Position numbers and translations under genes: made by a program. Positions 23,541-51,629 of a stretch of DNA of 64,000 bases are shown in pieces. Source of the DNA: a virus (taxonomy: Duplodnaviria > Heunggongvirae > Uroviricota > Caudoviricetes); the IMG/VR virus record IMGVR_UViG_3300046787_000353, positions 1-64,000 of that record, one strand, 5' to 3'. The notes below the pieces were generated by a model, which searched no databases, was not told the origin of the DNA, and worked only from the letters and a program-made list of their open reading frames with translations. Positions within the stretch are counted from its first letter, which is position 1, and each line of letters opens with the position of its first letter.

Positions 23541-23565
23541 TGAAAAGGGAGGGTTTTCCCTCCCA
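23541..23565 (-). terminator. rho-independent terminator after 23586..25871
   Basis: gggaggg/ccctccc hairpin. Confidence 0.55.
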
Positions 23566-23585
23566 ATCCATAGGGCTTTCCGAGC

Positions 23586-31470: not shown

Positions 31471-31471
31471 G

Positions 31472-31557
31472 CGGAAGGAGTAGGATTCGAACCCACGGTA
31501 CCTTTCAGTACACCTGATTTCAAGTCAGGCGCGATAGACCAACTCTGCCATCCTTCC
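31472..31557 (-). tRNA. tRNA-Ser (anticodon TGA), type II with long variable arm
   Basis: Acceptor GGAAGGA/TCCTTCC, anticodon loop CTTGAAA, T-arm GTGGG-TTCGAAT-CCCAC. Confidence 0.8.
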
Positions 31558-36129: not shown

Positions 36130-36165
36130 AATTTATCTTTTTAATTATATTCAAATATACGAAAT

Positions 36166-36603: not shown

Positions 36604-37456
36604 TTAATTGTTTTGTATTGGTTTTAACTCCATATTCATCATCTGCTACATCTCTGTAACTATTGGTACAATAGATACCATCGAAGTATCTGTTTAACTC
36701 CTCAAATCCGGCACTAAAGATACCATGTGTAACGATTAAATAAACTGAAGCGGTTGCTCTACTATCTTTGATTGCCTTAGCAAGTTCAATGAATGTTCTA
36801 CCACCATCACAAATATCATCTATGATTACATATTTCAATTTATTATGCTGGTCCAAAGTTGGGATTTCCGTTCTAAGAATTTTACCCGTTTTCATATCTC
36901 TAACTTTTGTAGCGGTTATGATTTTCTCAATACCAAACTCCTTAGCTACATCGAATATTTTCTTATATGCTCCTGCATCAGGTGATACCAATACCACATC
37001 TTCTTCCTCACCATCTTTAATCAAATAAGAAAGTGCATCATCAACTAATTCAAAGTTATTTTTTTTAGTGTAGTTGTTCAAACATGCTTCCAATACATCC
37101 GAATGAGGGTCTAAGACAGTAACATCTTTAAAGTTCTGTGAATTTATAATCGGGCAGATAACTTGCTTTAAATAGTTAACTCCGCCTCTTAGGAATTGTC
37201 TATCAGAACGAGAACCTAAGAAATAAGGAACTGCTAATGATATATTGGTAATACCCAAGTTTAACAATGCCTGATTAGCACATATAATCAATTCTAAATC
37301 TTTAAAATTGTTCAATCTACTTATAATTGTAATGGGTGATTTGTAATCCACAATGGTATTAATATCAATATCAATAGTCTGTTGACCATCTGGAAATTGA
37401 GAAATACGAAATTTTGGATTACTCTTATCGGGGTTAACTAAGTTTAAATAGCTCAT
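36593..37456 (-). CDS. prs: Ribose-phosphate pyrophosphokinase (PRPP synthetase)
   Basis: LAVPYFLGSRSDRQ aligns with PYFGYARQDRK, VLVSPDAGAYKK with VVVSPDVGGVKR, and YVIIDDICDGGRTF with the PRPP-binding VIVDDMVDTGGT motif. Confidence 0.85.
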   Translation of the reverse strand: MSYLNLVNPDKSNPKFRISQFPDGQQTIDIDINTIVDYKSPITIISRLNNFKDLELIICANQALLNLGITNISLAVPYFLGSRSDRQFLRGGVNYLKQVICPIINSQNFKDVTVLDPHSDVLEACLNNYTKKNNFELVDDALSYLIKDGEEEDVVLVSPDAGAYKKIFDVAKEFGIEKIITATKVRDMKTGKILRTEIPTLDQHNKLKYVIIDDICDGGRTFIELAKAIKDSRATASVYLIVTHGIFSAGFEELNRYFDGIYCTNSYRDVADDEYGVKTNTKQLNVF

Positions 37457-38717: not shown

Positions 38718-38948
38718 TTATTTTAAGAACCATTCAAATGATTGCTTGATTATTGATAAATTAACTTCTTGACAGATTACCCATTTTATCCAAGCCAATG
38801 GCCAAAATAAGAAATCTATAAATGCCCAAAAACCACTTTGGTTAATGGTATATCCGATTATAGCTGTTGGTAATGCGAATATAATGTTTGGTAATGATAC
38901 CGGTCTGATTGAAATTGTTCTTTTTGCCATCTTATTTAATTTTTTCAA
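38718..38948 (-). CDS. small membrane protein (76 aa)
   Basis: Two hydrophobic segments. Confidence 0.4.
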   Translation of the reverse strand: MKKLNKMAKRTISIRPVSLPNIIFALPTAIIGYTINQSGFWAFIDFLFWPLAWIKWVICQEVNLSIIKQSFEWFLK

Positions 38949-39657
38949 ATGTAGGTTTTAACCACAATATGTTGTTTTTGAATATATAATCTCTTAATTT
39001 TGGATTCTGATTAAGTATCTCTAATGTTTTCAATGTATCATGTTTGAAACACTTTAATAACTCTTCTCTGATTCTCTCAATTGATACCACTCCCATCTTA
39101 CCTTCGTAGTCAAAGTTGTATATGAAGTAATCTAAGTATGATAATCTAAATCCCTTCGTGATAGAGAACCTAATTGCTCTTATAATACGAAGTGGGTCAT
39201 CTTCAAATGTTACTTTGGGTGCCAATGGTGTTATCAATATCATACGTTCTAAATCCATTTGACCATTAAACAAATCAATTAGATTACCATCTTCATCTTC
39301 CGCCATAGCGTTGACTGTAAAATCTCTACGAATCAAATCATCTTCCAATGTTCCCAATTCTAAGATTGGTCTACGAGTCCCTTCCACATACCCAACTTCC
39401 TTTCTTGCCATTACAAAATCGGCAACCATTCCAGCGTATTTATGTTCTTTGGGAAATTTAGCACGGATAGTAAAACAATCAGGTGTAGAAAGGAATATTT
39501 CAAATTCATTATGTTCCAACCATTTGGTCATAATATCAAATCCTTCCTCCACTGTCCTATCTAAGTTGTCCAAAACAAATGTGAAGTCAATATCATTTGT
39601 ATCAACCCCTAACAATCTATCTCTAACACAACCTCCTACTTTAAATATCTTTGGCAT
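38932..39657 (-). CDS. cca: tRNA nucleotidyltransferase (CCA-adding enzyme), minimal head+neck form
   Basis: GGCVRDRLLG...DIDF and LEDDLIRRDFTVNAMA..DGNLIDLFNG...DL match class-II CCA enzyme motifs. Confidence 0.85.
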   Translation of the reverse strand: MPKIFKVGGCVRDRLLGVDTNDIDFTFVLDNLDRTVEEGFDIMTKWLEHNEFEIFLSTPDCFTIRAKFPKEHKYAGMVADFVMARKEVGYVEGTRRPILELGTLEDDLIRRDFTVNAMAEDEDGNLIDLFNGQMDLERMILITPLAPKVTFEDDPLRIIRAIRFSITKGFRLSYLDYFIYNFDYEGKMGVVSIERIREELLKCFKHDTLKTLEILNQNPKLRDYIFKNNILWLKPTFEKIK

Positions 39658-39732: not shown

Positions 39733-40116
39733 CTATAACATCAATTGAAATCTATCTCTCATTTGTTTTAATTTATCATCCGGCACTCCATGCTCATTTA
39801 CTCCCCCATGTCTATTTTCTACTACTAATGAATATACTCTGTATCCATGTTCTTTAGCTAATTCAAAGTAATAATCCATTTCCCAAGTCTGAGTAAATGT
39901 ATTTGATACTACTATCTTTTCAGTGTTATTTGTCATCCAAACTCTTACTGCATTTTGACACCAAGCGTGAGCTTCTTTTAATTTAGAAGCATCAAATTTA
40001 TATTCACCTTTGTCTATAAAATACTTATCGGCCTCCATGTGTGAACCTCCTAATGACTTTGCCAATGTTGATTTACCACTTCCCGGCAATCCTCTTAATA
40101 AGAATAATTCTTTCAT
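39733..40116 (-). CDS. P-loop kinase, polynucleotide 5'-kinase (T4 Pnk kinase-domain)-like
   Basis: Walker A GLPGSGKST (T4 Pnk has GCPGSGKST). About 127 aa. Sits next to the RNA ligase and CCA genes. Confidence 0.55.
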   Translation of the reverse strand: MKELFLLRGLPGSGKSTLAKSLGGSHMEADKYFIDKGEYKFDASKLKEAHAWCQNAVRVWMTNNTEKIVVSNTFTQTWEMDYYFELAKEHGYRVYSLVVENRHGGVNEHGVPDDKLKQMRDRFQLML

Positions 40117-40311: not shown

Positions 40312-40974
40312 TTACTTTTTATAGTTTTCTACAATTGTATGATGGTCTTTATCTAAGAATCCATCGATAGGTTGTTTATCCAATATCTTCAATACTTCAC
40401 TCATACTGATTGGAAATAATCCGTTACCATCAACTCCAACATCCATCACTTTACCTCTACCAACTCTTCTGCTAGGCGGTAAGTGAACGTGTCCATGTAA
40501 GTGAGGAACTCCTTTACCCAACCCATCCCAACTTGCAATTGGAAAGTGCATTAGAACAAAATGTGCTCCAACATGCTTACCACTTCCATCAGGCCATTTG
40601 ATACTCAAATCTAAGTATTGGTTAACCGAACTGAATAAATCAGCTACACCATCTTTGTTTTTGGCAATGTGATGGTCGTGGTTACCTAATATCAAATGTA
40701 TGTTTTGGCAAACAATTCTGTTTCTGAAATCAGCGATTGAATCAAATCCACCAAAACTCCAATCACCTAAGTGAATTAGGATATCATCATATCCAACAAG
40801 TGAGTTGATATTGTTAACCAATACGGAGTTCATTTCACCCAATGTATCGAAATCTCTGAAATGGTTATCACCACTTCTATCCCATTGAGTTGTTCCTTTA
40901 CAAATGTTAGCATGGTTGTAGTGGGTATCACTTGTGAACCATACTTTTTGTCCTTTGTTTAATAATATTTTCAT
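40312..40974 (-). CDS. Calcineurin-like metallophosphoesterase (candidate RNA-end healing phosphatase)
   Basis: Motifs GDWSFGG, GNHDHH and HLHGHVH. Confidence 0.75.
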   Translation of the reverse strand: MKILLNKGQKVWFTSDTHYNHANICKGTTQWDRSGDNHFRDFDTLGEMNSVLVNNINSLVGYDDILIHLGDWSFGGFDSIADFRNRIVCQNIHLILGNHDHHIAKNKDGVADLFSSVNQYLDLSIKWPDGSGKHVGAHFVLMHFPIASWDGLGKGVPHLHGHVHLPPSRRVGRGKVMDVGVDGNGLFPISMSEVLKILDKQPIDGFLDKDHHTIVENYKK

Positions 40975-42016: not shown

Positions 42017-42113
42017 AACTCTCTTATTTTTTATTACATAGTAAATATACGAAATTCAAATGAGATTGCCAAATAAAACACAAGTTATTTTTGAAAAAAT
42101 GATAGTAATATTG

Positions 42114-42184
42114 TTACCCGAGCAGGATTCGAACCTACCCTAACTGCACCAAAAACAGTTGTGCTACCGCTACACCATCAGGCA
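42114..42184 (-). tRNA. tRNA-Gln (TTG)
   Basis: Acceptor TGCCTGA/TCGGGTA, D-stem GTGT/GCAC, anticodon loop TTTTGGT, T-arm GTAGG-TTCGAAT-CCTGC. Confidence 0.7.
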
Positions 42185-42318
42185 AAATTCTCAAGCATTC
42201 TACTTCCCGCAGCACGAAATTGTATCTTACTTAGCCCATCGTTGGCGGTATGGGTACTTGAGTTATTGTAAATGAACAAAACCTATTGTTCTTTTGGCTT
42301 TTTACATAAGCCCATTTG

Positions 42319-42390
42319 AGCAGGTATTCGGACTCGAACCGAAATCTCCGACTTGGAAGGCCGGAACACTAACCATTGTGCTATACCTGC
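42319..42390 (-). tRNA. tRNA-Gly (TCC)
   Basis: Acceptor GCAGGTA/TACCTGC, anticodon loop CTTCCAA, T-loop TTCGAGT. Confidence 0.8.
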
Positions 42391-42451
42391 ATGCATCCCG
42401 TTACTCGTGCACGAGCGGTGGCACTACGGGACCGATGTTATTCCACTATCG

Positions 42452-42523
42452 AGCGAGAGATGGGGTTCGAACCCACGACCCTCACCTTGGCAAGGTGATG
42501 CTCTACCGCTGAGCTACTCTCGC
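42452..42523 (-). tRNA. tRNA-Gly (GCC)
   Basis: Acceptor GCGAGAG/CTCTCGC, anticodon loop TTGCCAA. Confidence 0.8.
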
Positions 42524-42659
42524 AAATTGTGTAGGATGCGCCCACCTACACCACACTTTTAGTAGTATGTTGCCACGCTACCACGTTTCGAGTTGTTTAA
42601 CGACCTACTCTGAATGTCAGCCGCCAGGGTGTGCTTCACGTTAAACCCGGAGACGCTTA

Positions 42660-42736
42660 TGGTGGACCAGATAGGGCTCGAACCTATGACCTACTGATTA
42701 TGAGTCAGGCGCTCTAACCAACTGAGCTACAAGTCC
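42660..42736 (-). tRNA. tRNA-Met (CAT), CCA encoded
   Basis: Anticodon loop CTCATAA. 3' end is ...CTGGTCC-A-CCA. Confidence 0.75.
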
Positions 42737-42875
42737 AATTAAGAGAAGCTTGGGTCTTTCGGGGTTACTGATTGAGTGCAATAAGTGAGCTCTTCCTACT
42801 ATTAACCCTTTTTCGGAAATCAATACACTCTACTTCTCAATTACAGCTATACTACTTCTCTTTTGTGGAGCTACT

Positions 42876-42948
42876 CGGATTCGAACCGAGGATTCCTGCG
42901 TGCAAGGCAAGTGTGTTAGCCAACTATACCATAGCCCCAAATTTGGAT
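42876..42948 (-). tRNA. tRNA-Ala (TGC)
   Basis: Acceptor GGGGCTA/TAGCTCC, anticodon loop CTTGCAC. Confidence 0.75.
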
Positions 42949-42996
42949 AGATATGGTTCTATCCGGACCAGAACATTCTCCCTAGGGAGATGCCAG

Positions 42997-43081
42997 TATC
43001 GGAGGTGGGACTCGAACCCACACGACCCCTTCGGGTCAATGGATTTTAAGTCCATCGGGTCTACCATTCCCCCACTCCGAT
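42997..43081 (-). tRNA. tRNA-Leu (TAA), type II
   Basis: Acceptor ATCGGAG/CTCCGAT, anticodon loop CTTAAAA, long variable arm. Confidence 0.75.
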
Positions 43082-43212
43082 AGTTCACTTTACATTCCAA
43101 AGTGTAAGTAGGTTTAGTTGTGGACTTTCCTTCCAGTAGAACTCTCATTTTATTGATTATCGGGTCTGTTATTCTACAATTTTAACGTATTGACCATACA
43201 CGTTGAGTATCG

Positions 43213-43290
43213 CTGTCAGGGCCGGACTCGAACCGGATAAGCAACCACTTTATTGGATTTGGGACCATCCCGCATTACGCCCACCTAACA
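43213..43290 (-). tRNA. tRNA-like gene, anticodon undetermined (good acceptor and T-arm; D and anticodon arms irregular); possible pseudo-tRNA
   Basis: Acceptor TGTTAGG/CCTGACA, T-arm CCGG-TTCGAGT-CCGG. Confidence 0.35.
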
Positions 43291-43292
43291 AT

Positions 43293-43535
43293 TTAATATC
43301 CTATTTCATCTTTAATTTTCCATTGGGTATCAATTGGAATTCGTTCAATTCTTTCAACTGGAACAAACCCATCAAACCCACTTTCTTTAACATCTTCAAA
43401 ATGTTCAATGGTATCCAAATAGAAACCGAATGAATATCTGATGTATTGGAATTTATCACCATCCCAATATGCCACATGGTTGTTTCTACTAAACCCATTA
43501 TACCAGCCTTCTTTCATTTCATTTTTTGGTATCAT
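43293..43535 (-). CDS. hypothetical protein (80 aa) embedded in the tRNA island
   Basis: ORF between the tRNA-like gene and tRNA-Arg with no tRNA overlap. Confidence 0.4.
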   Translation of the reverse strand: MIPKNEMKEGWYNGFSRNNHVAYWDGDKFQYIRYSFGFYLDTIEHFEDVKESGFDGFVPVERIERIPIDTQWKIKDEIGY

Positions 43536-43551
43536 ACTCTTTTATTTTTTG

Positions 43552-43625
43552 TGAACCCATCAGGAATCGAACCTGAAACCTACACATTAGAAGTGTGTTG
43601 CTCTATCCAATTGAGCTATGGGTCC
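43552..43625 (-). tRNA. tRNA-Arg (TCT)
   Basis: Anticodon arm ACACA-CTTCTAA-TGTGT, T-loop TTCGATT. Confidence 0.8.
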
Positions 43626-43630
43626 AGTTG

Positions 43631-43703
43631 CGGGACCGACGGGAGTTGAACCCGCTCCATACTCCGTGACAGGGAGATATCTTAACCGTTTGACCTCGGC
43701 CCC
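43631..43703 (-). tRNA. tRNA-Asp (GTC)
   Basis: Acceptor GGGGCCG/CGGTCCC, anticodon loop CTGTCAC, T-loop TTCAACT. Confidence 0.75.
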
Positions 43704-44081
43704 AAATTTGATAGGTGACCATCCTATCGTGAAATGATATACCATTTCTTTTCTTTATAGAATCCGAAGATACTGCAGGAACATTTTTTAGCACCCTCTT
43801 TCTTATCCCGCTTATAGATTTTACGCCATAAGAATTGCGGTAAGAGTAGGGTCAAGCTGAGAACTCATTTGTGTTGTCTTGTCAGTATCAAAACTCCTGC
43901 ACCAAGCTTGCCAAATCGTATTCCTTTCTCAAGGGAACAACACATCTACCATTACTGATAGTATCTTTATGTAAATTATTGCCAGTTCCTCAAATATCTA
44001 AAGATACTGTTCTATTGTTTCTGCGTTATCAATTTCAAACGTTTGGAATAATTTACAAAGGTATTCAATGTTTAACCTATT

Positions 44082-44154
44082 GAGCCTTCTGTCGGATTCG
44101 AACCAACGACCTGCTGATTACAAATCAGCGGCTCTACCAGCTGAGCTAAGAAGG
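44082..44154 (-). tRNA. tRNA-Thr (TGT)
   Basis: Acceptor GCCTTCT/AGAAGGC, anticodon loop TTTGTAA. Confidence 0.8.
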
Positions 44155-44210
44155 CATTTAATAATCAAAGTGTATTCTTCCCTTTCTACTACCGAACCAC
44201 CCTCACCAGG

Positions 44211-44235
44211 TAGTTCAGGTGGGAGTCGAACCCAC
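44211..44235 (-). other. tRNA 3' fragment (T-arm GTGGG-TTCGACT-CCCAC plus 3' acceptor strand), a remnant lacking a 5' body
   Basis: T-arm-like motif only 18 nt from the 3' end of tRNA-Glu, with no room for D and anticodon arms. Confidence 0.4.
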
Positions 44236-44253
44236 ATTCTCTTTAATTATTTG

Positions 44254-44325
44254 TAGCCCGTAGGGGAGTCGAACCCCTCTTTCCAGAATGAAAACCTGAC
44301 GACCTAACCGATAGTCGAACGGGCC
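44254..44325 (-). tRNA. tRNA-Glu (TTC)
   Basis: Acceptor GGCCCGT/ACGGGCT, anticodon loop TTTTCAT, T-arm AGGGG-TTCGACT-CCCCT. Confidence 0.75.
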
Positions 44326-44382
44326 TACTTAATTACTATCACTATTTCAAAGAACTATCGGAGTATTACCGATTTTGTTTTA

Positions 44383-44420
44383 CAAATATACGAAATATAT
44401 TTTACATTTCCTAATATTTT
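44383..44420 (-). promoter_or_regulatory. promoter, class 2 (TTAGGAAATGTAAAATATATTTCG-TATATTTG); a 49-nt exact repeat of 48393..48441
   Basis: Exact -7 TAnnTTTG, with TTAG in place of the -33 TTTG. Lies upstream of 44422..44886. Confidence 0.5.
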
Positions 44421-44421
44421 T

Positions 44422-44886
44422 TTACATTTTTACTAAATGGTCAGCGCAATATGTTGCCATTGTTCCAAATGTTTTATATCTCACTTTATATCCCATTCCT
44501 TCAACCATACCAACCGCTTGTCTGAACACTTCGTTTGATTTATACTTAGGGTCTGGGTTCAAATCCACATCAATCCAAGTTGCTTTCTGAATACCTGCTT
44601 TTTGTAAATCTTCAGCGGTTTCAACTGCGAACCAAACTTCATTTAACAATCTTACAGAACGAGTCCACTCTCTTTGAGCTGCCCATTTCCTATAAAGAAC
44701 GTGTGCTCCTCTTCCTGGTGTGTATAGTGCTACTACAATCGCATATATAGTTTTATCTTTACTATTTTGCGAATCACACCCTACCAATATTTCAATGTTC
44801 GGGTTTGATACAATATAATCTTTGATATATGTATCCAATTCGACCTGAGTCCCATCTTGTAATTTCCTATAAACCATAATCATCAA
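44422..44886 (-). CDS. hypothetical protein (154 aa) within the tRNA island
   Basis: Clean ORF flanked by tRNAs with its own promoter motif. Confidence 0.55.
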   Translation of the reverse strand: MMIMVYRKLQDGTQVELDTYIKDYIVSNPNIEILVGCDSQNSKDKTIYAIVVALYTPGRGAHVLYRKWAAQREWTRSVRLLNEVWFAVETAEDLQKAGIQKATWIDVDLNPDPKYKSNEVFRQAVGMVEGMGYKVRYKTFGTMATYCADHLVKM

Positions 44887-44892
44887 ATTTTG

Positions 44893-44965
44893 TACTCATA
44901 GAAGGATTCGAACCTTCAAAAACTGGGTTCTAAAGCCAGTGCGGTTACCAGTTACGCCATACGAG
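44893..44965 (-). tRNA. tRNA with anticodon TAG (nominally Leu-CUA) but type I (short 5-nt variable arm); atypical
   Basis: Acceptor GCTCGTA/TATGAGT, D-loop AACTGGTAA, anticodon loop TTTAGAA, T-arm GAAGG-TTCGAAT-CCTTC. Confidence 0.55.
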
Positions 44966-44981
44966 CAATTAATACTATCTG

Positions 44982-45062
44982 CGGAGGGCAGAGTAATCGA
45001 AACTCGACCTTTTACAATCATCGGTTTAGCAAACCGACTACAACACCCGTTGCTTACCCTCC
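44982..45062 (-). tRNA. tRNA-Ser (GCT), type II
   Basis: Acceptor GGAGGGT/GCCCTCC, anticodon arm TCGGT-TTGCTAA-ACCGA, 14-nt variable arm. Confidence 0.75.
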
Positions 45063-45069
45063 TTTTTTG

Positions 45070-45144
45070 GGTGAAAAATGGGCTTCGAACCCACAACCTT
45101 CCGAATCACAATCGGATGCTCTAACCAGTTGAGCTATAATCACC
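45070..45144 (-). tRNA. tRNA-His (GTG) with G-1:C73
   Basis: Anticodon arm TCCGA-TTGTGAT-TCGGA, D-arm GCTC-AACTGGTTA-GAGC, an extra 5' G pairing with discriminator C. Two U-U mismatches in the acceptor stem. Confidence 0.65.
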
Positions 45145-45212
45145 ATATTTTGTATAATATATTATCCATTTATCCCTAAATACCAGGTTTTTGTATAGTA
45201 TATTATACATCG

Positions 45213-45282
45213 TTGCATGTATGAGGTTCGAACTCATTTGGCCATCCTTATGAGAGATAACTCTTTTCCACTAAGCCATGCA
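45213..45282 (-). tRNA. tRNA-like gene, anticodon CAT (Met/Ile2-like) with weak D and anticodon stems; possibly degenerate
   Basis: Acceptor TGCATGG/ACATGCA, T-arm ATGAG-TTCGAAC-CTCAT, anticodon loop CTCATAA. Confidence 0.4.
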
Positions 45283-45349
45283 ATTTGTGGAATCGAACCA
45301 CTTTCCCAACTCTACGTCGGGCGATATATCCAATATCCTTCACCGGTTG

Positions 45350-45420
45350 AGTTAAGTGTTGGATTCGAACCAACGTATAAGGGTTTGCAGTCCTTCGCCT
45401 AACCACTCGGCCAACCTAAC
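45350..45420 (-). tRNA. tRNA-Cys (GCA)
   Basis: Acceptor GTTAGGT/ACTTAAC, anticodon loop CTGCAAA, T-arm GTTGG-TTCGAAT-CCAAC. Confidence 0.7.
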
Positions 45421-45488
45421 ATTTAGTCTATTGTTATCTGAATATTGGTAGTATTACTACTATTATTGGATAATAATTAAACTTATTG

Positions 45489-45560
45489 TATCTCCGGAGA
45501 GAATCGAACTCCCATTTACCGGTTCGTAGCCGATTGTTCTATCCGTTAAACTACGGAGAT
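45489..45560 (-). tRNA. tRNA-Arg (ACG)
   Basis: Perfect acceptor ATCTCCG/CGGAGAT, anticodon loop CTACGAA. Confidence 0.8.
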
Positions 45561-45563
45561 ATC

Positions 45564-45830
45564 CTATCTATACTTTCGTATCATTTCAAACACCTTGCCA
45601 ATATCAGTTAATTTCATAATTTGGTCATTTCTGATTGGTAAGAATGCGATGGTGAATCCGTGGTTACCTTGAAAGAAATCTTCTCTCTTTATCCTATTCC
45701 CATTTACTTTTTCAAGGTATATCCAAGGATAGTTTCCAGCTAATTCCACTTCAATACCAATTTTTCTCAATCTCGGAACTAACCGATTTATTACATTATC
45801 TTCCATTGTGTCTTTCTGTTGTGTTTCCAC
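45564..45830 (-). CDS. hypothetical protein (88 aa)
   Basis: Minus-strand ORF abutting the 5' end of tRNA-Arg(ACG). Confidence 0.45.
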   Translation of the reverse strand: METQQKDTMEDNVINRLVPRLRKIGIEVELAGNYPWIYLEKVNGNRIKREDFFQGNHGFTIAFLPIRNDQIMKLTDIGKVFEMIRKYR

Positions 45831-45985
45831 GTTTTGTAACTTCTATACTTTGCCGAAGAATGTCCTTTTTTAAAGTTCAATCCTTCATCCCAATACGGAG
45901 GATACTCCATATCTAGCCAAATTAATCTGTAATGTTTGGAACAAGTTGCTTTGTTCAATCTCTGTCTGTTAGTTTTTACACTCAT
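45791..45985 (-). CDS. hypothetical basic protein (64 aa); possibly the N-terminal part of a frameshifted or split gene with 45564..45830
   Basis: ORF overlapping the downstream ORF by 40 nt in another frame. Confidence 0.3.
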   Translation of the reverse strand: MSVKTNRQRLNKATCSKHYRLIWLDMEYPPYWDEGLNFKKGHSSAKYRSYKTWKHNRKTQWKIM

Positions 45986-46052
45986 TTTTGCTCAATTTTA
46001 GGTTAATAAACCTAATGAGCATCGAATTTCTTTTTCATAATTTTACATTTAG

Positions 46053-46121
46053 CACGGATTGAAGTAATCGAAACCTCTCCTATGGATTTGGAGTCCATTT
46101 GGCTACCTTAGCCTAACCCGT
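46053..46121 (-). tRNA. tRNA-Trp (CCA)
   Basis: Acceptor ACGGGTT/AATCCGT, anticodon arm ATGGA-CTCCAAA-TCCAT, T-loop TTCGATT. Short D-loop. Confidence 0.6.
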
Positions 46122-46181
46122 ATTTATGTTTCATAGTTTATATGTGAGTTTAAACCTTACTACGTTACTATGAAACATCAG

Positions 46182-46255
46182 TTGGAATAGTGGGACTCGA
46201 ACCTACAACCCCCGCCGTATCAGGGCGGTGCGCTAACCAATTGCGCCATATTCCA
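46182..46255 (-). tRNA. tRNA-Ile (GAT)
   Basis: Acceptor TGGAATA/TATTCCA, anticodon arm CCGCC-CTGATAC-GGCGG. Confidence 0.8.
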
Positions 46256-46261
46256 ATATTG

Positions 46262-46337
46262 TCGGGTGAGCAGGATTCGAACCTGCGTGCTCTCGCGTCC
46301 AAGGCGAGCGAGATAAACCTGACTCCTCTACCACCCG
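46262..46337 (-). tRNA. tRNA-Pro (TGG)
   Basis: Anticodon arm CTCGC-CTTGGAC-GCGAG, T-arm GCAGG-TTCGAAT-CCTGC. Confidence 0.75.
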
Positions 46338-46391
46338 TTGGTGGATGGATTATTTTTTTAAAGTAGAATTCGCCAACCTCAAAACTACTAT

Positions 46392-46465
46392 GTGACCCCT
46401 TTGGGACTCGAACCCAAGACTCCCTCATTAAAAGTGAGGTGCTCTAACCAGCTGAGCTAAGAGGT
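46392..46465 (-). tRNA. tRNA-Lys (TTT)
   Basis: Acceptor GACCTCT/AGGGGTC, anticodon loop CTTTTAA. Confidence 0.8.
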
Positions 46466-46471
46466 CATTAT

Positions 46472-46544
46472 GTGGAGGTGAGTGGAATCGAACCACTTCC
46501 TTTCGCTCTTCAGGCGAACGCTTCTACCAAGTTAGCTTCACCTC
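46472..46544 (-). tRNA. tRNA-Phe (GAA)
   Basis: Acceptor GGAGGTG/CACCTCC, anticodon loop CTGAAGA. Confidence 0.8.
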
Positions 46545-46552
46545 CAATTTTA

Positions 46553-46629
46553 GGAGCAGAGATAGGATTCGAACCTATAACCTAATCCGGCCACATTACC
46601 GGTTGCACGTCCAATTGTGCTTCAACGCT
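46553..46629 (-). tRNA. atypical tRNA-like gene. It has a good D-arm and T-arm, but the acceptor pairs poorly and the anticodon stem CCGG/CCGG carries an 8-nt loop TAATGTGG. Identity undetermined.
   Basis: D-arm GCAC-AATTGGAC-GTGC, T-arm ATAGG-TTCGAAT-CCTAT. Confidence 0.35.
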
Positions 46630-46635
46630 CATGTT

Positions 46636-46720
46636 GTGGGAGCAGAAGGATTCGAACCTACTACCTATGCCGGTTACCAGATTTACAGTCTGGCGCCTAA
46701 CCAATTCGTGCGTTACTCCC
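46636..46720 (-). tRNA. tRNA-Tyr (GTA), type II
   Basis: Acceptor GGGAGTA/TGCTCCC, anticodon arm CCAGA-CTGTAAA-TCTGG, long variable arm. Confidence 0.8.
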
Positions 46721-46788
46721 AATTTCCAATTTTGTTATCACCATTTCCCCTCTAAACGAGCGGCGTGTTCCGGATTGGTAACCGTTAG

Positions 46789-46861
46789 TAGGAGATATAG
46801 GATTCGAACCTATGGCCCCCGCCATGTAAGGGCGGTGCTCTTACCGCTGAGCTAATCTCCT
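46789..46861 (-). tRNA. tRNA-Val (TAC)
   Basis: Acceptor AGGAGAT/ATCTCCT, anticodon arm CCGCC-CTTACAT-GGCGG. Confidence 0.8.
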
Positions 46862-46896
46862 AATTTAATTGCCAGTATTTCAATGAACTACATTCT

Positions 46897-46968
46897 GCGG
46901 GGAAAGAGAATTTCGAAATCTCGACCTACGGATTAACAGTCCGCCGCTCTGCCTCTGAGCTATATCCC
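46897..46968 (-). tRNA. tRNA-Asn (GTT)
   Basis: Acceptor GGGGATA/TTTCCCC (one mismatch), anticodon loop CTGTTAA, T-loop TTCGAAA. Confidence 0.65.
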
Positions 46969-46969
46969 C

Positions 46970-47010
46970 AAAACAAAAAACCCCTAACCGATTTGTATTC
47001 AGTTAGGGGT
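46970..47010 (-). terminator. rho-independent terminator upstream (on the minus strand) of the main tRNA array
   Basis: cccctaac/gttagggg 8-bp stem followed by UUUUUUUGUUUU on the minus strand. Confidence 0.65.
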
Positions 47011-47232
47011 TCTTAAATATTCTATTATTTAATACATTTACATCATATCTCCTGCTATAATGTCCCCTAACGTAGTATCTTGCTTGTCCAAATTACTAAA
47101 CACACAAATCCCTGCCCATGTTCTTTCTAACATCGGTAGATAATTGGCTGTATGTATTGTTAAGGTTTTCATTGCTAATATATATGTAAAAATTTATTAA
47201 TCGTTTGTTTTTGTTAAAATAATTTAATTTTT

Positions 47233-47304
47233 GAGCGAAACCAAGGAATCGAACCCCAACTTGCAACCTGGACGGCTGCCGTGCTACCACTACACTAATC
47301 TCGC
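47233..47304 (-). tRNA. tRNA, nominal anticodon TCC (Gly-like), with G instead of U at position 33 and GU-rich T-stem; atypical
   Basis: Acceptor GCGAGAT/GTTTCGC, D-arm GTGT-AGTGGTA-GCAC, anticodon arm GCAGC-CGTCCAG-GTTGC, T-loop TTCGATT. Confidence 0.5.
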
Positions 47305-48397
47305 GTTTTGAGCGGTGCGAAGGTTTTGCTCCCCCTCTACCTATCTGGAATGATAGATGTGCTACTATTACACCAATACCGCTTATATAAGGATGAGAAT
47401 ACTCCTTTTTACGAACCAACTTTAGAAAGATTATTGTTTCCTTTCATTTCCACTCCCTTTTGAGAAGTATCAATCCAATGTGGGTAATTATAGATTTACC
47501 AATCTTTGAGTTTCAAACTACTCTCTTCCTACTCCTTTTCTTCAACCCTGCCGAGCTGATTCACACTTGCGATGTTAGAAACCTTTCAAAAGAATCACAG
47601 ACCTCTTGCGGAGGTATCGTGGCAGGGAACAACTCCCTACTATGTACACACCTTTCATCTGAAACTGGCAAACACTTATGCTTTATGTTTATCTTATAGA
47701 TTTTTCATCAAATTGAAATTATAAAGTTTTGTGGTCGTAGATGGGTTCAGGTAGCGGTTTGCCTCTAGCTCCGTTATCTTTTGAACAACAGAATACTAAA
47801 CTACCCGATGTGTTATCTCTAACACCATATTTCAAGTCAACTTCACTACCCACTCTTTGGTGAGATGTAGGTAAGGATAATAACAACACCACTTGTTCTT
47901 TATCATACCTTTCGGTTTTAAGTCAACTCTTATACTGAATCACGCAATGATAAGGAGAGATTAAGTCCTTACTTCTTGCAATAATTCTATGGATTATTCT
48001 TTTTGGTGTTCCCACCTCAACTGAACTATCTACTTAGCCCAGTCATCTCCCCACTTTCTTTACAGTGTCACCCTCAATACTAAAGGGGAAATGATATTCC
48101 ACTTGCCTACTCAAGTTCATAACCTTACAGGGTTACAAACCGCAGGATAGTTAACCAACTACCCCACTTTATCCTACTTTCGTAGTTTATTTCACGACCA
48201 TAGGCGGCCGTTGTTACACTATGTAGAACGAATCTACTATGTGTAATCTTTTCAATAATTTAAAGAACGTTTTGTTTCACAAATATACGAAAACTTTTTC
48301 AAACTTCCAAATATTTTTTAAACTTTTTTTATAAATCTAACTACCCGAGTATCTTTCATCACCTATAAGGGTTTACATCATCTTTACTTTTGTTTTA

Positions 48398-48436
48398 CAA
48401 ATATACGAAATATATTTTACATTTCCTAATATTTTT
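48398..48436 (-). promoter_or_regulatory. promoter, class 2; the middle of three tandem promoter-like repeats (about 48280, 48398, 48513) that face the ORF-free 47305..48260 region
   Basis: caaatatacgaaa ... tttacatttcctaatattttt units. Minus-strand -7 TATATTTG. Confidence 0.5.
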
Positions 48437-48571
48437 TAAACTTTTTTTTGTTGAACATTTTCGGCTATGTTTACTTACACCATCTATACTTCCTACTTCT
48501 GAATCAACTTTGTAAATATACGAAAACATTTTTACATTTCCTAATATTTTTACAAATATTTTTAATCTTTG

Positions 48572-48644
48572 TTGCGGGAGAGGGATTCGAACCCCCGACC
48601 TTATGGTTATGAGCCACACGAGCTACCACTGCTCTATCCCGCTA
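48572..48644 (-). tRNA. tRNA-Met (CAT), second copy, with unpaired A1:A72
   Basis: Anticodon arm TGTGG-CTCATAA-CCATA, T-arm GGGGG-TTCGAAT-CCCTC, D-arm GAGC-AGTGGTA-GCTC. Confidence 0.7.
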
Positions 48645-48690
48645 TATATCTTAAAGAACGTTATTCTATATATTCATATTTATATATATA

Positions 48691-48725
48691 CAAATATACG
48701 GAAAAAATATTAAATTTACAAATAT
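48691..48725 (-). promoter_or_regulatory. promoter upstream of tRNA-Met(CAT) 48572..48644
   Basis: Minus-strand TTTGTAAATTTAATATTTTTTCCG-TATATTTG with a 20-nt spacer. Confidence 0.5.
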
Positions 48726-48888
48726 TTTTTAAAATAATTTTAAGGTATCCGGCTTTATAGTTTCGTTTCACTCTTATTGAAACTAATATTTAGAGAGTCA
48801 CGTAGTCGGTTTTATTACTACTGGCTTCAACCTTTCAATTATTATAATACAAATATACAAAATAAATTCGATATATCCTAGTCTTTTT

Positions 48889-49872
48889 TTATTTTTTTAT
48901 TGCTTTTTTTACAATATTTGTTGCAGCTTGTTTAACCGCATGGTTATCATCGTATTTAAGTGCCGATTTAACCTTAATCATCTTACCAGTATCAGGGTTT
49001 TTAACCATTTGGTCTAATACATCTTTAGGTAACATTGATTTTAATTTCATATCGTTTGATTTTGCAGGTGCTTTTGGTTCGAATTTTAATGGCTCATCTT
49101 TCACAGGATTATGCTTTAATGAAAATGGATTCCATAAACCTCTACTATCTACTTCCTTCGAAGTTGATGGTGCAACTTTAGCATCTTTCTGATGTGGATA
49201 CTTTGTTGGGTTATATGGTTCTAAATCCGATGTGTTTACATTACCATCCGCATCAGTCTTAGTTTCACCTCTTTCATCCGCCAATCTTACAATACCAACT
49301 GTATTAGTTTTTTTATTGTAAACAACATCATCTACATCATATAATGGCTCTTCTGCCTTTGGTTCGAATGTAAATACTTGCCCACCTTTTAATTTACTAT
49401 ACCCTTGTGCAATTTTACCAGGTGAGAACTTTCCAATGTTAAATGATTCTCCTGATTTTGAATCAATGAATGTAGCTTCTCCTTTTGCTTTAGTTTCTTC
49501 ATCGGCGAACAATACACTATCTTGTTGATATTTGTTCCCCAATTTCAATACATCATCCCTTGTTATGTTTGGGATGAATAGAGATTTCTCTTGAGTTGGA
49601 ACTTTCATATCATCCGGACAATCCTTATATTCAGTATCAGGTTTTCTACATTCCTGCCACATGCCATCTACGTGAACAAACCCATATCCCATACTTCTCA
49701 AGTCGGCCTCAAGTTGTTTGTTTCTTTGTTTGTTTTCAGCAGGTGTTAATTCACCTCTACTAGCAGTTACTACACCCCAATTTTTCATTTTAGGGTTGGA
49801 AACAACGTGTTGGTAAATTCTACCTAATGATGCTTCGTTTAAATCGTATCTATTTTTAACTGTAAAGTTCAT
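48889..49872 (-). CDS. hypothetical Lys-rich protein (327 aa)
   Basis: Long minus-strand ORF. Confidence 0.55.
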   Translation of the reverse strand: MNFTVKNRYDLNEASLGRIYQHVVSNPKMKNWGVVTASRGELTPAENKQRNKQLEADLRSMGYGFVHVDGMWQECRKPDTEYKDCPDDMKVPTQEKSLFIPNITRDDVLKLGNKYQQDSVLFADEETKAKGEATFIDSKSGESFNIGKFSPGKIAQGYSKLKGGQVFTFEPKAEEPLYDVDDVVYNKKTNTVGIVRLADERGETKTDADGNVNTSDLEPYNPTKYPHQKDAKVAPSTSKEVDSRGLWNPFSLKHNPVKDEPLKFEPKAPAKSNDMKLKSMLPKDVLDQMVKNPDTGKMIKVKSALKYDDNHAVKQAATNIVKKAIKK

Positions 49873-50624
49873 TATTTCTTAATTATATTTGCGTTTTTTA
49901 ATATTCTTGCATTAGTTACCCATTGTTTACCAATATTGTTTTTCAATGGTTCTCTAATAAATCCATCTACGGATTTTTGGATTTGCGATGTGATGTTATT
50001 ACCTGTATTGGAGTTATCAACGATACGGAAGTTACCACCAAATAAACTTTGGAATGCTCCTAAGTTATGTTGACACTCTTTCCATATTTCACTAACCAAT
50101 GTTTCTGGCAATACTCTATCTCTTTTTGAATTACGAAATTGAGCCACTTCCAATGAAGTATTAACAAACACCATAAAGGTATCGTATCCCAATTCCTCTG
50201 CTCTTTGCTTCTGCTTTCTGATTTTATTAACATCATCACCAGTCCCATCGATAATCATACCCAATCTACCGGCTTCGTAAAACTCTCTAGTCTTTTGTGT
50301 TACGGCTTTAGCTTTTTCTCTAACACCATTCTTATCTTTGGTAATAAAATCCCAAAGCTCAGGTTGAGTTTTTTCTATTTGAGCTAAATCTTTAGGGTTA
50401 ATTCCACTCTTCTTTAATTGAGCTTCGAATGCCGTATCCGAATTTATAGATTTTAAACCACTTGCTGAAAATGATGATATTCCCTGAATACCAAACAAAT
50501 CACCAGCTACTTTGGATTTACCACTACCAGGTCCTCCTGCTAAGAATATACATTTAAGAATACCCGGGTCATCGACACCCTCATTCAGCATACTATTACT
50601 AAGTAAGTCTTTTAACTTTATCAT
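49872..50624 (-). CDS. P-loop NTPase / nucleotide kinase-like protein (zeta-toxin/AAA_33-like fold)
   Basis: Walker A FLAGGPGSGKS. The N-terminus MIKLKDLL is shared with the next two genes. Confidence 0.5.
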   Translation of the reverse strand: MIKLKDLLSNSMLNEGVDDPGILKCIFLAGGPGSGKSKVAGDLFGIQGISSFSASGLKSINSDTAFEAQLKKSGINPKDLAQIEKTQPELWDFITKDKNGVREKAKAVTQKTREFYEAGRLGMIIDGTGDDVNKIRKQKQRAEELGYDTFMVFVNTSLEVAQFRNSKRDRVLPETLVSEIWKECQHNLGAFQSLFGGNFRIVDNSNTGNNITSQIQKSVDGFIREPLKNNIGKQWVTNARILKNANIIKK

Positions 50625-51223: not shown

Positions 51224-51629
51224 TGGTGGAGGTGGAGGGATTCGCACCCTCGTCCAGAATACGGCCTAATAAACCTCATTCACAAGCTTATTTAGTTTTT
51301 CTTAACTAACAAAATAAATAGTTTCTAATTCCCCGTTGCTACTATTAAACTTAGATGGTTCTATTGTTAAGGATAATTACCAAAAACACTTCCTATTTCT
51401 TTTCGGATAGAAATCACACCTGGTTTCACATTCTTTTTTACCTCACGATGTGTGCGAGGAAGGATTAGGCTGCTACAGCGTAATCAGCACCTACGAAAGA
51501 CATAGCATCTTCGAAGGTCATTGTAGATAATTCTACTGCGTTTATTGTTCGATAGGTATTTAAGGATTTCCATCTAACCCTGCTTGCAATTATACTAAAT
51601 CATCGCTCCTGTCAAATCTAGTCACCCCC
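51224..51629 (-). ncRNA. ssrA: tmRNA (ssrA-like transfer-messenger RNA), about 406 nt, CCA encoded
   Basis: Minus-strand 5' end GGGGGTGACTAGATTTGACAGGAGCG aligns with E. coli GGGGCUGAUUCUGGAUUCGACGGG. An internal frame reads ...GCT GAT TAC GCT GTA GCA GCC TAA, i.e. ...ADYAVAA-stop (compare the ...ENYALAA tag). The 3' end GGACGAGGG-TGCGAAT-CCCTC-CACCTCC-A-CCA aligns with E. coli GGACGCGGG-UUCAACU-CCCGC-CAGCUCC-A-CCA. The 5' GGGGGTG pairs with the 3' CACCTCC. The region has no ORF. Confidence 0.8.

Follow-up and report, generated by a model that had tools for sequence, protein, structure and literature searches.

Decoding tRNAs, a GOLLD RNA, a tmRNA and predicted non-decoding tRNA-Gly-like RNAs in the tRNA island of a large phage

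Background

Islands in which tRNAs are found together with GOLLD RNA, tmRNA and RNA repair genes are a known kind of phage feature. The 64,000-nucleotide stretch analyzed here (positions 1 to 64,000 of the Caudoviricetes record IMGVR_UViG_3300046787_000353 from IMG/VR; hereafter, the window) contains such an island and, within it, two tRNA-Gly-like RNAs, denoted X and Y, that are the principal subject of this work. The closest described counterparts of the island as a whole are those of KVP40 and of the huge phages of Al-Shayeb et al. 2020 (up to 67 tRNAs, along with tmRNA, CCA-adding and tRNA-ligation genes; PMC7162821), with which the window shares the same-strand array, the tmRNA and the repair genes. 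Compared with the tRNA islands of large phages, the set in the window is near the theoretical minimum required for reading all codons, and no aminoacyl-tRNA synthetases are encoded in the window.

GOLLD RNAs have been described in phages and prophages, "often near tRNA islands" (PMC12286853, PMC6582537), and the presence of tRNAs both beside and within GOLLD has been noted (PMC12286853). A homo-oligomeric 14-mer nanocage is known for the env-38 GOLLD only (PMC12286853).

The third relevant system is the Mom protein of phage Mu, the founding member of the Mom family, which was found in 2026 (PMC13219725) to be an aminoacyl-transferase that needs Gly-tRNAGly to form N6-carbamoylmethyl-adenine in DNA (see also bioRxiv 10.1101/2023.03.24.534169); phage-encoded tRNAs are mentioned in neither of these two reports. 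Phage Mu uses the host tRNAGly and carries no tRNA, whereas the window encodes Gly-like RNAs but no Mom gene was found in it. A comparable division of labor exists in Staphylococcus, where non-proteinogenic tRNAGly species, whose changes are in the D and T arms and whose anticodon loop has the normal 7 nt, are the glycine donors for FemXAB-dependent cell wall synthesis.

Two conserved tRNA-Gly-like RNAs downstream of GOLLD

All window features described below are on the minus strand. An IMG/VR search with the DUF458 protein encoded in the island as the probe identifies 27 loci, the largest contig being 325 kb long (L numbers designate the compared loci); in the two nearest relatives, L001 and L002 (IMGVR_UViG_3300043410_001471 and 3300021962_000023, respectively), the gene order is the same as in the window. 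Presence, boundaries, conservation, covariation, synteny and codon coverage were observed directly in these sequences.

The tRNA-Gly-like RNA X (47311..47382) starts 8 nt past the 3' end of GOLLD. In its cloverleaf, the anticodon stem is 6-7 bp long, the anticodon loop, AUUCCA, has 6 nt, and the T loop, with 9 nt, is non-canonical. It scores 23.2 bits with the general tRNA model, and its minimum free energy fold is the cloverleaf (z=-2.8). The tRNA-Gly-like RNA Y (47233..47304) is reported by ARAGORN as Gly-tcc and matches the Rfam tRNA model with 37.9 bits; in its loop, C-GUCCA-G, U33 is replaced by G33, and C32 and G38 can pair, leaving a loop of 5 nt. Neither RNA combines the 7-nt loop with U33 as decoding tRNAs do, and because the anticodon loops are contracted to 5-6 nt, X and Y are unlikely to decode.

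Both RNAs are conserved in position and in structure. X is 93-94% identical in L002 and L004, and homologs with other stems and 6-nt loops are present in L009, L011 and L015; the Y loop is found with covarying stems in L001 (two copies), L009, L011 and L015. One or both Gly-like RNAs occupy the same place in L001, L002, L004, L009, L011, L015 and other loci, and in the window and these six relatives the first Gly-like gene lies 7-11 nt after the GOLLD 3' end, with no promoter motif between the two. In an alignment of 13 GOLLD-adjacent Gly-like sequences, including X and Y (alignment A2), the cloverleaf is 94% paired, compared with 42-55% when the partners are slid, and compensatory changes are found in 10 of the 22 pairs. 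The base pairs G1-C72, C2-G71 and G3-C70, the discriminator U73 and the two C's of UCC (tRNA positions C35 and C36) do not vary among the 13 sequences; these positions form the established identity set of the glycyl-tRNA synthetase (GlyRS) of E. coli. Judged from this alignment, X and Y are a conserved, covarying, non-canonical RNA family and not a product of decay.

A search of IMG/VR with a Y-type pattern recovered 15 true copies, of which 8 are located directly after GOLLD, all in the clade of the window, and the other 7 are solitary. An Rfam scan of the contigs carrying the 7 solitary copies detects no tRNA or GOLLD. The possibility that the X/Y type is specific to GOLLD was considered and is rejected in view of these solitary copies. 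Three of them adjoin a Mom-family gene (PF25680, 111 bits) and three adjoin a gene for a small protein with an HEWxH motif; the seventh copy is in L063.

Linkage of the RNA family to Mom genes

The association with Mom was examined in 80 Mom-family loci from IMG/VR (L059 and L074-L152), in which the Mom protein is 54-100% identical to the probe. ARAGORN at a relaxed threshold detects a Gly-type tRNA-like gene in 64 of the 80 loci, and 64 of the 65 tRNA calls are of the Gly type. In these 64 loci, the gene lies at a median distance of 31 nt from the end of the Mom gene, with an even split between the strands. A covariance model, R1, built solely from 33 Mom-associated sequences (alignment A4), finds the RNA in the corresponding place in each of the remaining 16 loci, with scores of 52-70 bits, so that all 80 possess the RNA within tens of nucleotides of the Mom gene end. 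The strict linkage between this RNA and Mom, as well as the existence of a widespread non-decoding tRNAGly family, are apparently undescribed in the literature searched.

The structure of the Mom-associated RNAs is well supported by covariation: 98.4% of the cells in A4 are paired, and compensatory changes occur in 15 of the 21 pairs. The sixth pair of the anticodon stem (position 32-38) is formed in all 33 sequences, and therefore the loop is truly 5-6 nt long; in A4, pair 33-40 is formed in 33 of 33, with four double changes. The family is thus defined by a six-pair anticodon stem and a 5-6-nt loop with UCC or ACC, and G1-C72, C2-G71, G3-C70, U73, C35 and C36 are invariant in all 33 sequences. 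The loop of X, AUUCCA, is identical to that of the L127 RNA, and the loop of Y, GUCCA, to those of the RNAs from L059 and L145.

Y is the top match to R1 in the window, with 61.1 bits versus 37.9 bits with the general tRNA model, and X shows the same preference (49.7 versus 23.2 bits), whereas the scores of the canonical tRNA-Gly genes are reversed (51.6 versus 70.5 bits for Gly-GCC and 45.5 versus 66.9 bits for Gly-UCC). Given that members of the family score 52-77 bits with R1 and canonical tRNAGly 45-52 bits, Y falls inside the family range and X within the canonical range. Y is a member of the Mom-associated RNA family, and X probably is one as well.

The conserved features of the family are consistent with an RNA that carries glycine without taking part in decoding. 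The Mom protein of Mu is a GNAT aminoacyl-transferase that produces N6-carbamoylmethyl-deoxyadenosine, and the X/Y-type RNAs keep the nucleotides needed for glycine charging. The idea is the same as for the staphylococcal tRNAGly species, namely, a glycine-accepting paralog that is kept from translation for the benefit of a GNAT-fold aminoacyl-transferase; unlike the staphylococcal tRNAs, X, Y and their relatives have the sixth anticodon-stem pair and the 5-6-nt loop. We consider it somewhat probable that, in the small phages that encode Mom, the contracted-loop tRNAGly-like RNAs are dedicated glycine carriers that function outside translation and feed transferases such as Mom; for the window phage, the same role is proposed tentatively. 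These observations suggest that some phages may carry a private glycine co-substrate for DNA hypermodification that is insulated from the ribosome.

Among cultured phages, an unannotated R1 match (53 bits, approximately 46328-46399) is present in Arthrobacter phage TaeYoung (L153, KU160668.1), where it overlaps the end of the gene for the Mom-like "acetyltransferase" gp72; no R1 match was detected for the Mom-like proteins of Listeria phage LP-124 and Proteus phage P16-2532. TaeYoung, with gp72 and the unannotated RNA, offers a cultured system for the glycine donor hypothesis.

The small protein next to the other solitary Y-type RNAs (131-150 aa, with the invariant motif HEWxH...QP) is encoded in L056 (6057-6509), L061 (12085-12480) and L073; L073 and the clade member L005 are parts of one contig. 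In L044, the gene for this protein (8750-9175) is located 4.3 kb from a GOLLD. Neither a Pfam or Protein Data Bank assignment nor a solved relative was found for the protein, and the only similarity detected is a weak match to DUF3920.

The GOLLD RNA of the island

The largest gene of the island encodes a GOLLD RNA of about 884 nt (47390..48273). The match to RF02032 (292.3 bits with a gathering score of 150, E=1.5e-82) covers model positions 1-416 of 416 and is not truncated; this model encompasses the last hairpin of the 5' domain, the linker and the 3' domain only, corresponding to 47390-47808, and the conserved 5' domain occupies approximately 47809-48210. Homology with the relatives begins at 48273, just past a promoter at 48311-48280, and the transcript is presumed to start at about 48273. 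An alignment of 9 GOLLD sequences (alignment A1) contains 220 predicted pairs, 115 of which show compensatory changes, in a block (approximately 48210-47390) that includes both domains and a pseudoknot. The covariation spans the whole 3' domain, and in the pseudoknot, in which columns 690-699 pair with columns 839-848, 7 of the 10 pairs show compensatory changes. The RNA is taken to be about 880 nt long because of the start of homology at 48273, the position of the promoter and the extent of the covarying block. Its layout consists of a 5' domain of approximately 495 nt, an A-rich linker and a 3' domain of approximately 275 nt.

Rfam scanning of 8 relative loci detects full-length GOLLD in all 8 (293-322 bits) and tmRNA in 6, located within arrays in which 21-25 tRNAs share one strand (22-26 ARAGORN calls when the tmRNA is counted). 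In the distant relatives L016, L019 and L023, GOLLD and tmRNA follow the tRNAs. A hidden Markov model of the 5' domain finds this domain in 25 loci, including 4 that were not retrieved via DUF458. The search with a clade-specific pattern from the 5' domain against 185,579 species genomes yielded no match.

The marine env-38 GOLLD, for which the 14-mer nanocage was determined by cryo-EM, has the same two-domain plan, with the linker at 497-538 of 833 nt (PMC12286853), and, like env-38, the GOLLD of the window belongs to a phage and is located within a tRNA island, downstream of a tRNA-Met (PMC12286853, PMC6582537). Compared with the known GOLLD RNAs (the L. brevis prophage, env-38 and the Mycobacterium tRNA arrays), it differs in the probable Bacteroidota host, in having its own promoter of the Bacteroidota type and in the linker without a tRNA. 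In addition, its clade differs from known GOLLD in the Gly-like pair that is fixed at the 3' end in one sub-clade and in the tmRNA that is regularly found alongside. Rfam detects no tRNA in the linker of the window GOLLD; the linkers of the GOLLD RNAs in L032, L033, L041 and L047 hold a tRNA. Assignment of these linker tRNAs to the Gly-like type was considered and rejected, as they are Lys, Asp and 8-nt-loop forms.

GOLLD and tmRNA are encoded within a few kilobases of each other also in L030, L038 and L047, which are outside the DUF458 set, as they are in the 6 of 8 relatives; no mention of this pairing was found in the GOLLD paper (PMC12286853).

The function of GOLLD has been a question since 2009, and the clade described here supplies a covarying two-domain alignment, a defined promoter and reproducible neighbors, namely, the tRNA set, tmRNA, genes for tRNA repair and CCA addition, and the Gly-like RNAs.

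The tRNA inventory and codon coverage

The island was searched with ARAGORN under default settings and with the Rfam tRNA model RF00005 at the gathering threshold (29 bits). ARAGORN reports 24 tRNAs, all on the minus strand, between 42113 and 48643, as well as Ser-tga at 31471-31557. Rfam likewise reports 24 island tRNAs plus Ser-tga, with scores of 35-72 bits and E-values from 1e-3 to 7e-14. The two tools disagree on two genes: Asp-gtc is found by Rfam and by ARAGORN at a relaxed threshold only, and Ser-gct by ARAGORN only. The third CAU tRNA (22 bits) and X (23 bits) score under the gathering score of RF00005. Altogether, the island contains 26 plausible decoders, all with regular anticodon loops, complemented by Ser-UGA outside the island; the inventory further comprises one or two Gly-like RNAs of the non-decoding kind, two eroded pseudo-tRNAs and two T-arm/3' fragments.

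In the order of the minus strand, the tRNAs other than Y found by both tools (Rfam scores in bits) are Met(CAU) b (48571..48643, 63.1), which has its own promoter unit at 48691-48722 and is a candidate initiator judging from the A1·A72 mismatch; Asn(GUU) (46897..46969, 60); Val(UAC) (46788..46861, 72.4); Tyr(GUA), with a long variable arm (46636..46720, 39); Phe(GAA) (46472..46545, 61.9); Lys(UUU) (46392..46466, 69); Pro(UGG) (46261..46337, 56.4); Ile(GAU) (46181..46255, 66); Trp(CCA), with a short D arm (46052..46121, 35.4); Arg(ACG) (45488..45560, 60.4); Cys(GCA) (45349..45420, 59.8); His(GUG), with G-1:C73 (45069..45143, 58.4); Leu(UAG) (44892..44966, 56.9); Glu(UUC) (44253..44325, 49.3); Thr(UGU) (44082..44155, 67.8); Arg(UCU) (43551..43625, 70.8); Leu(UAA) (42996..43081, 60); Ala(UGC) (42865..42938, 58.4); Met(CAU) a, with an encoded CCA (42660..42736, 67.7); Gly(GCC) (42451..42523, 70.5); the canonical Gly(UCC), with the loop CUUCCAA (42318..42390, 66.9); and Gln(UUG) (42113..42184, 52.9). 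Ser(UGA) (31471..31557, 53 bits), also found by both tools, lies 10.5 kb from the island. Asp(GUC) (43630..43703) scores 52.1 bits with Rfam. The type II Ser(GCU) (44981..45062) is called by ARAGORN at the same position in the relatives; in Rfam, it is represented only by a sub-threshold match to the tRNA-Sec model (36.7 bits). The third CAU tRNA (45213..45282, 22.1 bits with Rfam) has the canonical loop CUCAUAA and a D stem of 3 bp; its identity in L001 and L002 is 97-99%, with a background of about 80%, and at its position in L006 and L007 ARAGORN calls Met(cat).

The CCA end is encoded in only one of the 28 tRNA and tRNA-like genes, that for tRNA-Met(CAU) a, and is missing in the other 27. 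In 23 of the 28, "CA" directly follows the discriminator base without a full CCA; this dinucleotide could be a processing or CCA-completion signal.

A sequence-only reading of the window had described a tRNA island that decodes all 20 amino acids, and its main statements stand. All 23 island tRNAs that it named are recovered by ARAGORN and/or Rfam, with the same anticodons and with ends within 1 nt; the G-1:C73 pair of tRNA-His is readable in the sequence; Ser-TGA is indeed set apart from the island; and the calls of the two programs cover 20 of 20 amino acids. The isotypes are neither fewer nor different, and only 4 of the tRNA calls fall below 40 bits, so that the set does not look like one of numerous pseudogenes. 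The list of confident tRNAs was incomplete, with Leu-tag (44892-44966), the second Gly-tcc copy (47233-47304, 38 bits) and the third CAU tRNA (45213-45282) being missed. The estimate of about 30 genes holds if tRNA-like elements are counted but is too high for the decoders, of which the island has 26. Likewise, the designation "tRNA island" is apt for the same-strand tRNAs but passes over the largest gene, the GOLLD of about 880 nt, in what appeared as a 0.9-kb gap (47390-48273). A phage tRNA island can be a mixed bag of RNA genes. In standard annotation, Y would be called tRNA-Gly, X and the third CAU tRNA would be missed, and GOLLD would be left as an empty gap.

Codon usage was counted over 13,255 codons in 57 long minus-strand open reading frames (ORFs), with a GC content at the third position (GC3) of 0.27. 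The tRNA set can read 97.5% of the codons in the window: Watson-Crick pairing accounts for 48%, standard wobble for 38% and four-way wobble of U34 for 11%, leaving 2.5% unread. The unread codons are CGG (8 occurrences) and AUA (327 occurrences, 34% of the Ile codons). The usual reason for the presence of three CAU tRNAs is that one of them is tRNA-Ile2, and AUA would be read if one of the three in the island were such a lysidine-type tRNA. There are no C34 anticodons other than CAU and CCA, and one tRNA is available per codon box or half-box, with U34 or G34 at the wobble position; the set is close to a minimal complete decoder. The earlier proposal that the anticodons favor A/T-ending codons agrees with the counts, in that 11 of the 13 U34 anticodons correspond to the codon used most within the box or half-box; this does not hold for Gly, where GGT (0.46) is preferred over GGA (0.37), and for Ser, where TCA ties with AGT at 0.31. 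The phage is AT-rich, as previously noted, with the GC content of the window in the range of 0.31-0.36.

The tmRNA and genes for RNA repair and maturation

A tmRNA (51224..51629) is encoded 2.6 kb upstream of the island and matches RF00023 with 80.1 bits (gathering score 47) over model positions 1-374 of 374. Its acceptor is formed by GGGGGUG...CACCUCCACCA, and its tag, AVELSTMTFEDAMSFVGADYAVAA*, is identified by ARAGORN at a relaxed threshold; under default settings, this program finds near-identical tags in the relatives. The tag in L029 is the same as in the window, although the locus is only approximately 81-94% identical.

A cluster downstream of the island encodes an RNA ligase (37564-38706; PF09414 and PF21189), a nucleotidyltransferase of the CCA-adding type (38932-39657; PF01743), located 2.5 kb from the island, a P-loop kinase (39733-40116; PF13671) and a phosphoesterase (40312-40974; phrog_547). 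Another P-loop kinase of 250 aa (49872..50624), similar to AAA_33 and Zeta toxin and with a weak match to a polynucleotide kinase PHROG, is encoded between the island and the tmRNA. The sequence-only reading overlooked the tmRNA and the flanking ligase, kinase, phosphoesterase and CCA-adding genes.

Relatives, probable host and transcription

No close relative of the window phage was found among GenBank phages: megablast identifies single tRNAs only, blastn with GOLLD yields one distant match of 119 nt, and protein identity is at most 36%; cultured and GenBank phages come no closer than approximately 26-36% protein identity. The relatives in IMG/VR are on contigs of 140-325 kb, which bears out the large-phage setting that had been surmised previously.

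The GOLLD unit is preceded by a promoter TTTG-N20-TATATTTG (48280..48311) that is part of a 59-nt repeated unit, D1, and that we take to be of the Bacteroidota -33/-7 promoter type. The full TTTG-N18-21-TAnnTTTG motif occurs 6 times in the window versus 2.5 expected, always on the coding strand, and a core resembling the Shine-Dalgarno sequence was found in only 1 of 52 ORFs. The bS21-encoding phages of freshwater Bacteroidetes (293-331 kb, 31-34% GC, 5-25 tRNAs; PMC9723584) resemble the window phage in size class, GC content, tRNA numbers and lack of Shine-Dalgarno use and have the same predicted host phylum; a direct link could not be established, as the searched IMG/VR identifiers are absent from the supplements of PMC9723584 and the bS21 region is not in the window. 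The host is probably a member of Bacteroidota because of the promoter motif counts, the scarcity of Shine-Dalgarno sequences and the likeness to these phages.

Six copies of the 59-nt promoter unit split the region into several transcription units. The copy at 44373..44431, which is 95% identical to the one at 48388-48446, appears to restart transcription before tRNA-Glu. Three further tandem copies, at 48388-48446, 48503-48561 and 48681-48739, are separated by short conserved segments. A hairpin of 16 bp followed by a T run (46976..47014), resembling an intrinsic terminator, closes the GOLLD unit in the window phage; in L019, a terminator is located 118 nt after GOLLD.

The segments between the tandem promoter units upstream of GOLLD (48329-48561) are more conserved than GOLLD itself, and for the segment 48447-48502 the identity is 96% with L001 and 93% with L002. 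These segments may be small transcripts or may merely space the stacked promoters.

Function of the island and alternative explanations

The explanation that we consider likely is that the region is a composite RNA-gene island of a large phage, which brings together decoders, a ribosome-rescue RNA, and tRNA repair and maturation, with the Gly-like RNAs as non-ribosomal glycine donors; expression, processing, charging and all functions are predicted from the sequences. Transcription would start from several 59-nt promoter units of the TTTG...TAnnTTTG type. The phage's own decoders and tmRNA, together with the repair and maturation enzymes, would sustain translation of the AT-rich messages under shortage, degradation or cleavage of host tRNAs, and glycine-charged X and Y would be substrates of an aminoacyl-transferase outside the ribosome, a role that their Mom-adjacent relatives probably have. 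The most likely role of the island, as predicted from its gene content, is thus to keep phage translation running on phage-owned parts. The suggestion of the sequence-only reading that such a set may compensate for depletion or cleavage of host tRNAs agrees with the presence of genes for RNA ligase, kinase, phosphoesterase and CCA addition on the flanks.

An alternative that is in essence that reading is a plain codon-compensation island, in which the tRNAs merely supplement the decoding of codons poorly read by the host and the irregular tRNA-like elements, X and Y included, are functionless decaying duplicates. The low GC3 of 0.27 and the match between the U34 anticodons and the preferred A-ending codons agree with it, as does the mosaic character of the island, in which accessory ORFs come and go, and genuine decay products are present (46553-46629, 43212-43290 and two T-arm fragments), with no full-length counterpart in the relatives. 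A set that serves to compensate would be expected to cover a few rare codons, but the one observed is nearly complete, and a likely Bacteroidota host of similar GC content would leave little to compensate. Moreover, numerous compensatory changes have preserved the cloverleaf of X and Y among phages that share only 62% identity in the DUF458 protein, conservation of the third CAU tRNA in the relatives is far above the background, and the contracted-loop type is fixed beside Mom genes in 80 of 80 loci. We regard a plain codon-compensation island of this kind as distinctly unlikely. A doubtful but more serious contender is an anti-defense island, whereby the tRNAs replace host tRNAs cut by anticodon nucleases or by other defenses that target tRNAs, the ligase, kinase and phosphoesterase reseal them, and X and Y are resistant variants or decoys rather than glycine carriers. 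The window encodes a suitable toolkit, with an RNA ligase, two P-loop kinases, a phosphoesterase, a protein with a HAD RNA-repair domain and a CCA-adding-type enzyme; phage tRNAs are known to defeat tRNA-targeting defenses, some via changes in the anticodon loop (PMC10264068, PMC11555353, PMC11464382), and it is exactly in the anticodon loop that X and Y depart from canonical Gly tRNAs. For the canonical tRNAs, this proposal overlaps the composite island. With regard to X and Y, a 5-6-nt loop should, under the rules of tRNA structure, abolish decoding, so that they could not replace a cut tRNA, and the strict linkage to Mom elsewhere points to another job; in addition, no host or defense system is known for the window phage.

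Another alternative concerns X and Y specifically. They might be processing handles with no function of their own, the tRNA shape of which would attract RNase P or RNase Z for cleavage of the GOLLD precursor 8 nt past its last helix; this appears unlikely to be their role. The 7-11-nt spacing in the window and six relatives, without an intervening promoter motif, is what such an arrangement would predict, other GOLLD classes precede or contain tRNAs (L041 and L047), and tRNAs next to or inside GOLLD are on record (PMC12286853). Any tRNA would suffice as a handle, however, leaving the conserved UCC, the GlyRS identity set and the contracted loop unexplained; the RNA type also occurs alone, far from GOLLD, in 7 of the 15 pattern matches and in the 80 Mom loci, and the GOLLD RNAs of L016, L019 and L023 lack such a neighbor. 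If X, Y and their relatives are indeed glycine carriers, their fixation at the 3' end of GOLLD throughout a sub-clade of large phages would imply that GOLLD works with aminoacyl-tRNA-like cargo, which it might hold, shield or deliver. We consider this improbable; if true, the link to cargo would be the first functional handle on GOLLD.

Several observations weigh against the composite island with glycine-donating X and Y. The Gly-like pair is absent in the distant GOLLD-bearing loci L016, L019 and L023 and eroded in L003, and therefore GOLLD is not dependent on the pair. X matches R1 no better than canonical Gly tRNAs do, and its T loop differs from those of the Mom-associated RNAs; Y, for its part, might still decode GGN despite G33. 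No Mom homolog was detected with hmmsearch in the window and the available flanking sequence of the relatives, which is the part of the genomes covered by this search, and hhalign gave probabilities below 1% for 75 ORFs, so that the proposed enzyme partner of X and Y is missing from these sequences, where GOLLD is the neighbor. No SmpB was seen in a scan of approximately 70 window ORFs, although no search was aimed at SmpB, and the tmRNA is assumed to rely on the host protein. The terminator of the GOLLD unit, when looked for in L001, was found not to be conserved there. Finally, codon compensation, host shutoff and defense against nucleases are inseparable because the host is known by prediction only.

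What the composite reading adds to the initial description is a full account of GOLLD in this clade, the recognition of two "degenerate tRNAs" as conserved RNAs predicted to accept glycine without decoding, and the linkage of this type to Mom.

Eroded elements, small ORFs and other sequences of the island

Two tRNA-like elements are detected by ARAGORN at a relaxed threshold only. The first (46553..46629) has a good T arm and an irregular anticodon loop, and its folding is unremarkable (z=-0.9); the second (43212..43290) is a Leu-like pseudo-tRNA. In both, the T arm alone matches the relatives. Two other elements consist of a T arm and a 3' acceptor. The one at 45286..45348 was read from the sequence, without a tRNA call by any tool, and is 87-89% identical in L003 and L026; the one at 44205..44252 belongs to the repeat family D3, shows a local Rfam match at 44219-44235 and has a T arm 95% identical to that of tRNA-Leu(UAA). 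These four elements look like decay products because they have at most one arm in common with the relatives. The earlier notion of degenerate tRNAs interspersed in the island is therefore apt for these four but not for the third CAU tRNA, X and Y, which are conserved. Additional hits of ARAGORN at the relaxed threshold, namely, those at 43343-43423 (inside the 80-aa ORF) and 44348-44422 (in a promoter unit), those on the plus strand and the "permuted tmRNAs", were dismissed as false positives, and antisense Rfam matches ("Plastid-ycf2" and others) were rejected as mirror images of tRNAs.

The protein-coding genes embedded in the island are small. An RNase H-like protein of 154 aa (44422..44886; PF04308/DUF458, Pfam E=8e-20) has homologs within or near tRNA arrays in the 27 IMG/VR loci, KVP40 and Pseudomonas phage Milchi. 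An 80-aa ORF (43293..43535; phrog_18490) is conserved in L002 only, with 96% identity; two small overlapping ORFs (45564..45985) of 88 aa (phrog_38683) and 64 aa are accessory and found in only some relatives; and a 44-aa ORF that follows the Gly-like pair (47038..47172) is poorly conserved, with only 26-aa matches in L003 and L004.

In KVP40 (L054, 167708-169719) and Milchi (L055), which are unrelated large phages, the DUF458 gene lies 1.4-5 kb from tRNA clusters. A DUF7788/DUF2828 "RNA-binding protein" is encoded beside it in KVP40 and approximately 4 kb away in Milchi; no similarity was found between this Ro-like protein and the product of window ORF 56632-58038, the only ORF compared.

Auxiliary genes elsewhere in the window (18756-19325, 55524-56117, 48889-49872 and 21974-25871) encode the HAD domain known from "Swiss-army-knife" RNA repair proteins, an endonuclease that acts non-specifically on DNA/RNA, a SAM-lyase-family domain and a MoxR AAA+ ATPase; the 761-aa neighbor of the MoxR ATPase shows a sub-threshold match to the CobT VWA domain (PF11775, 19.7 bits with a cut-off of 21). 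Adjoining genes encode proteins similar to nicotinamide phosphoribosyltransferase and PRPP synthetase (34591-37456), and another gene a cytidylyltransferase/NMNAT-like protein (5384-5851). These three genes look like what we take to be a phage pathway of NAD+ reconstitution that counters NAD-depleting defenses.

A conserved 76-nt element directly 5' of tRNA-Gln (42189..42264), with no match in Rfam, is a small RNA candidate. It is 93-96% identical even in the distant L016 and L026, where GOLLD is only 68% identical, and its closing stem covaries (CUCAAG/CUUGAG in the window, CUCAGG/CCUGAG in L026); a shorter variant is present in L017, L020 and L023, with the common motif CCGCUAA. Folding-energy tests on this element and on the conserved spacers gave no significant result (z from -1.3 to +0.7). 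The 54-nt spacer between tRNA-Lys and tRNA-Pro (46338-46391) shows 100% identity in L001 and L003 despite differences in the flanking tRNAs, a pattern that suggests either mosaic recombination or a functional element.

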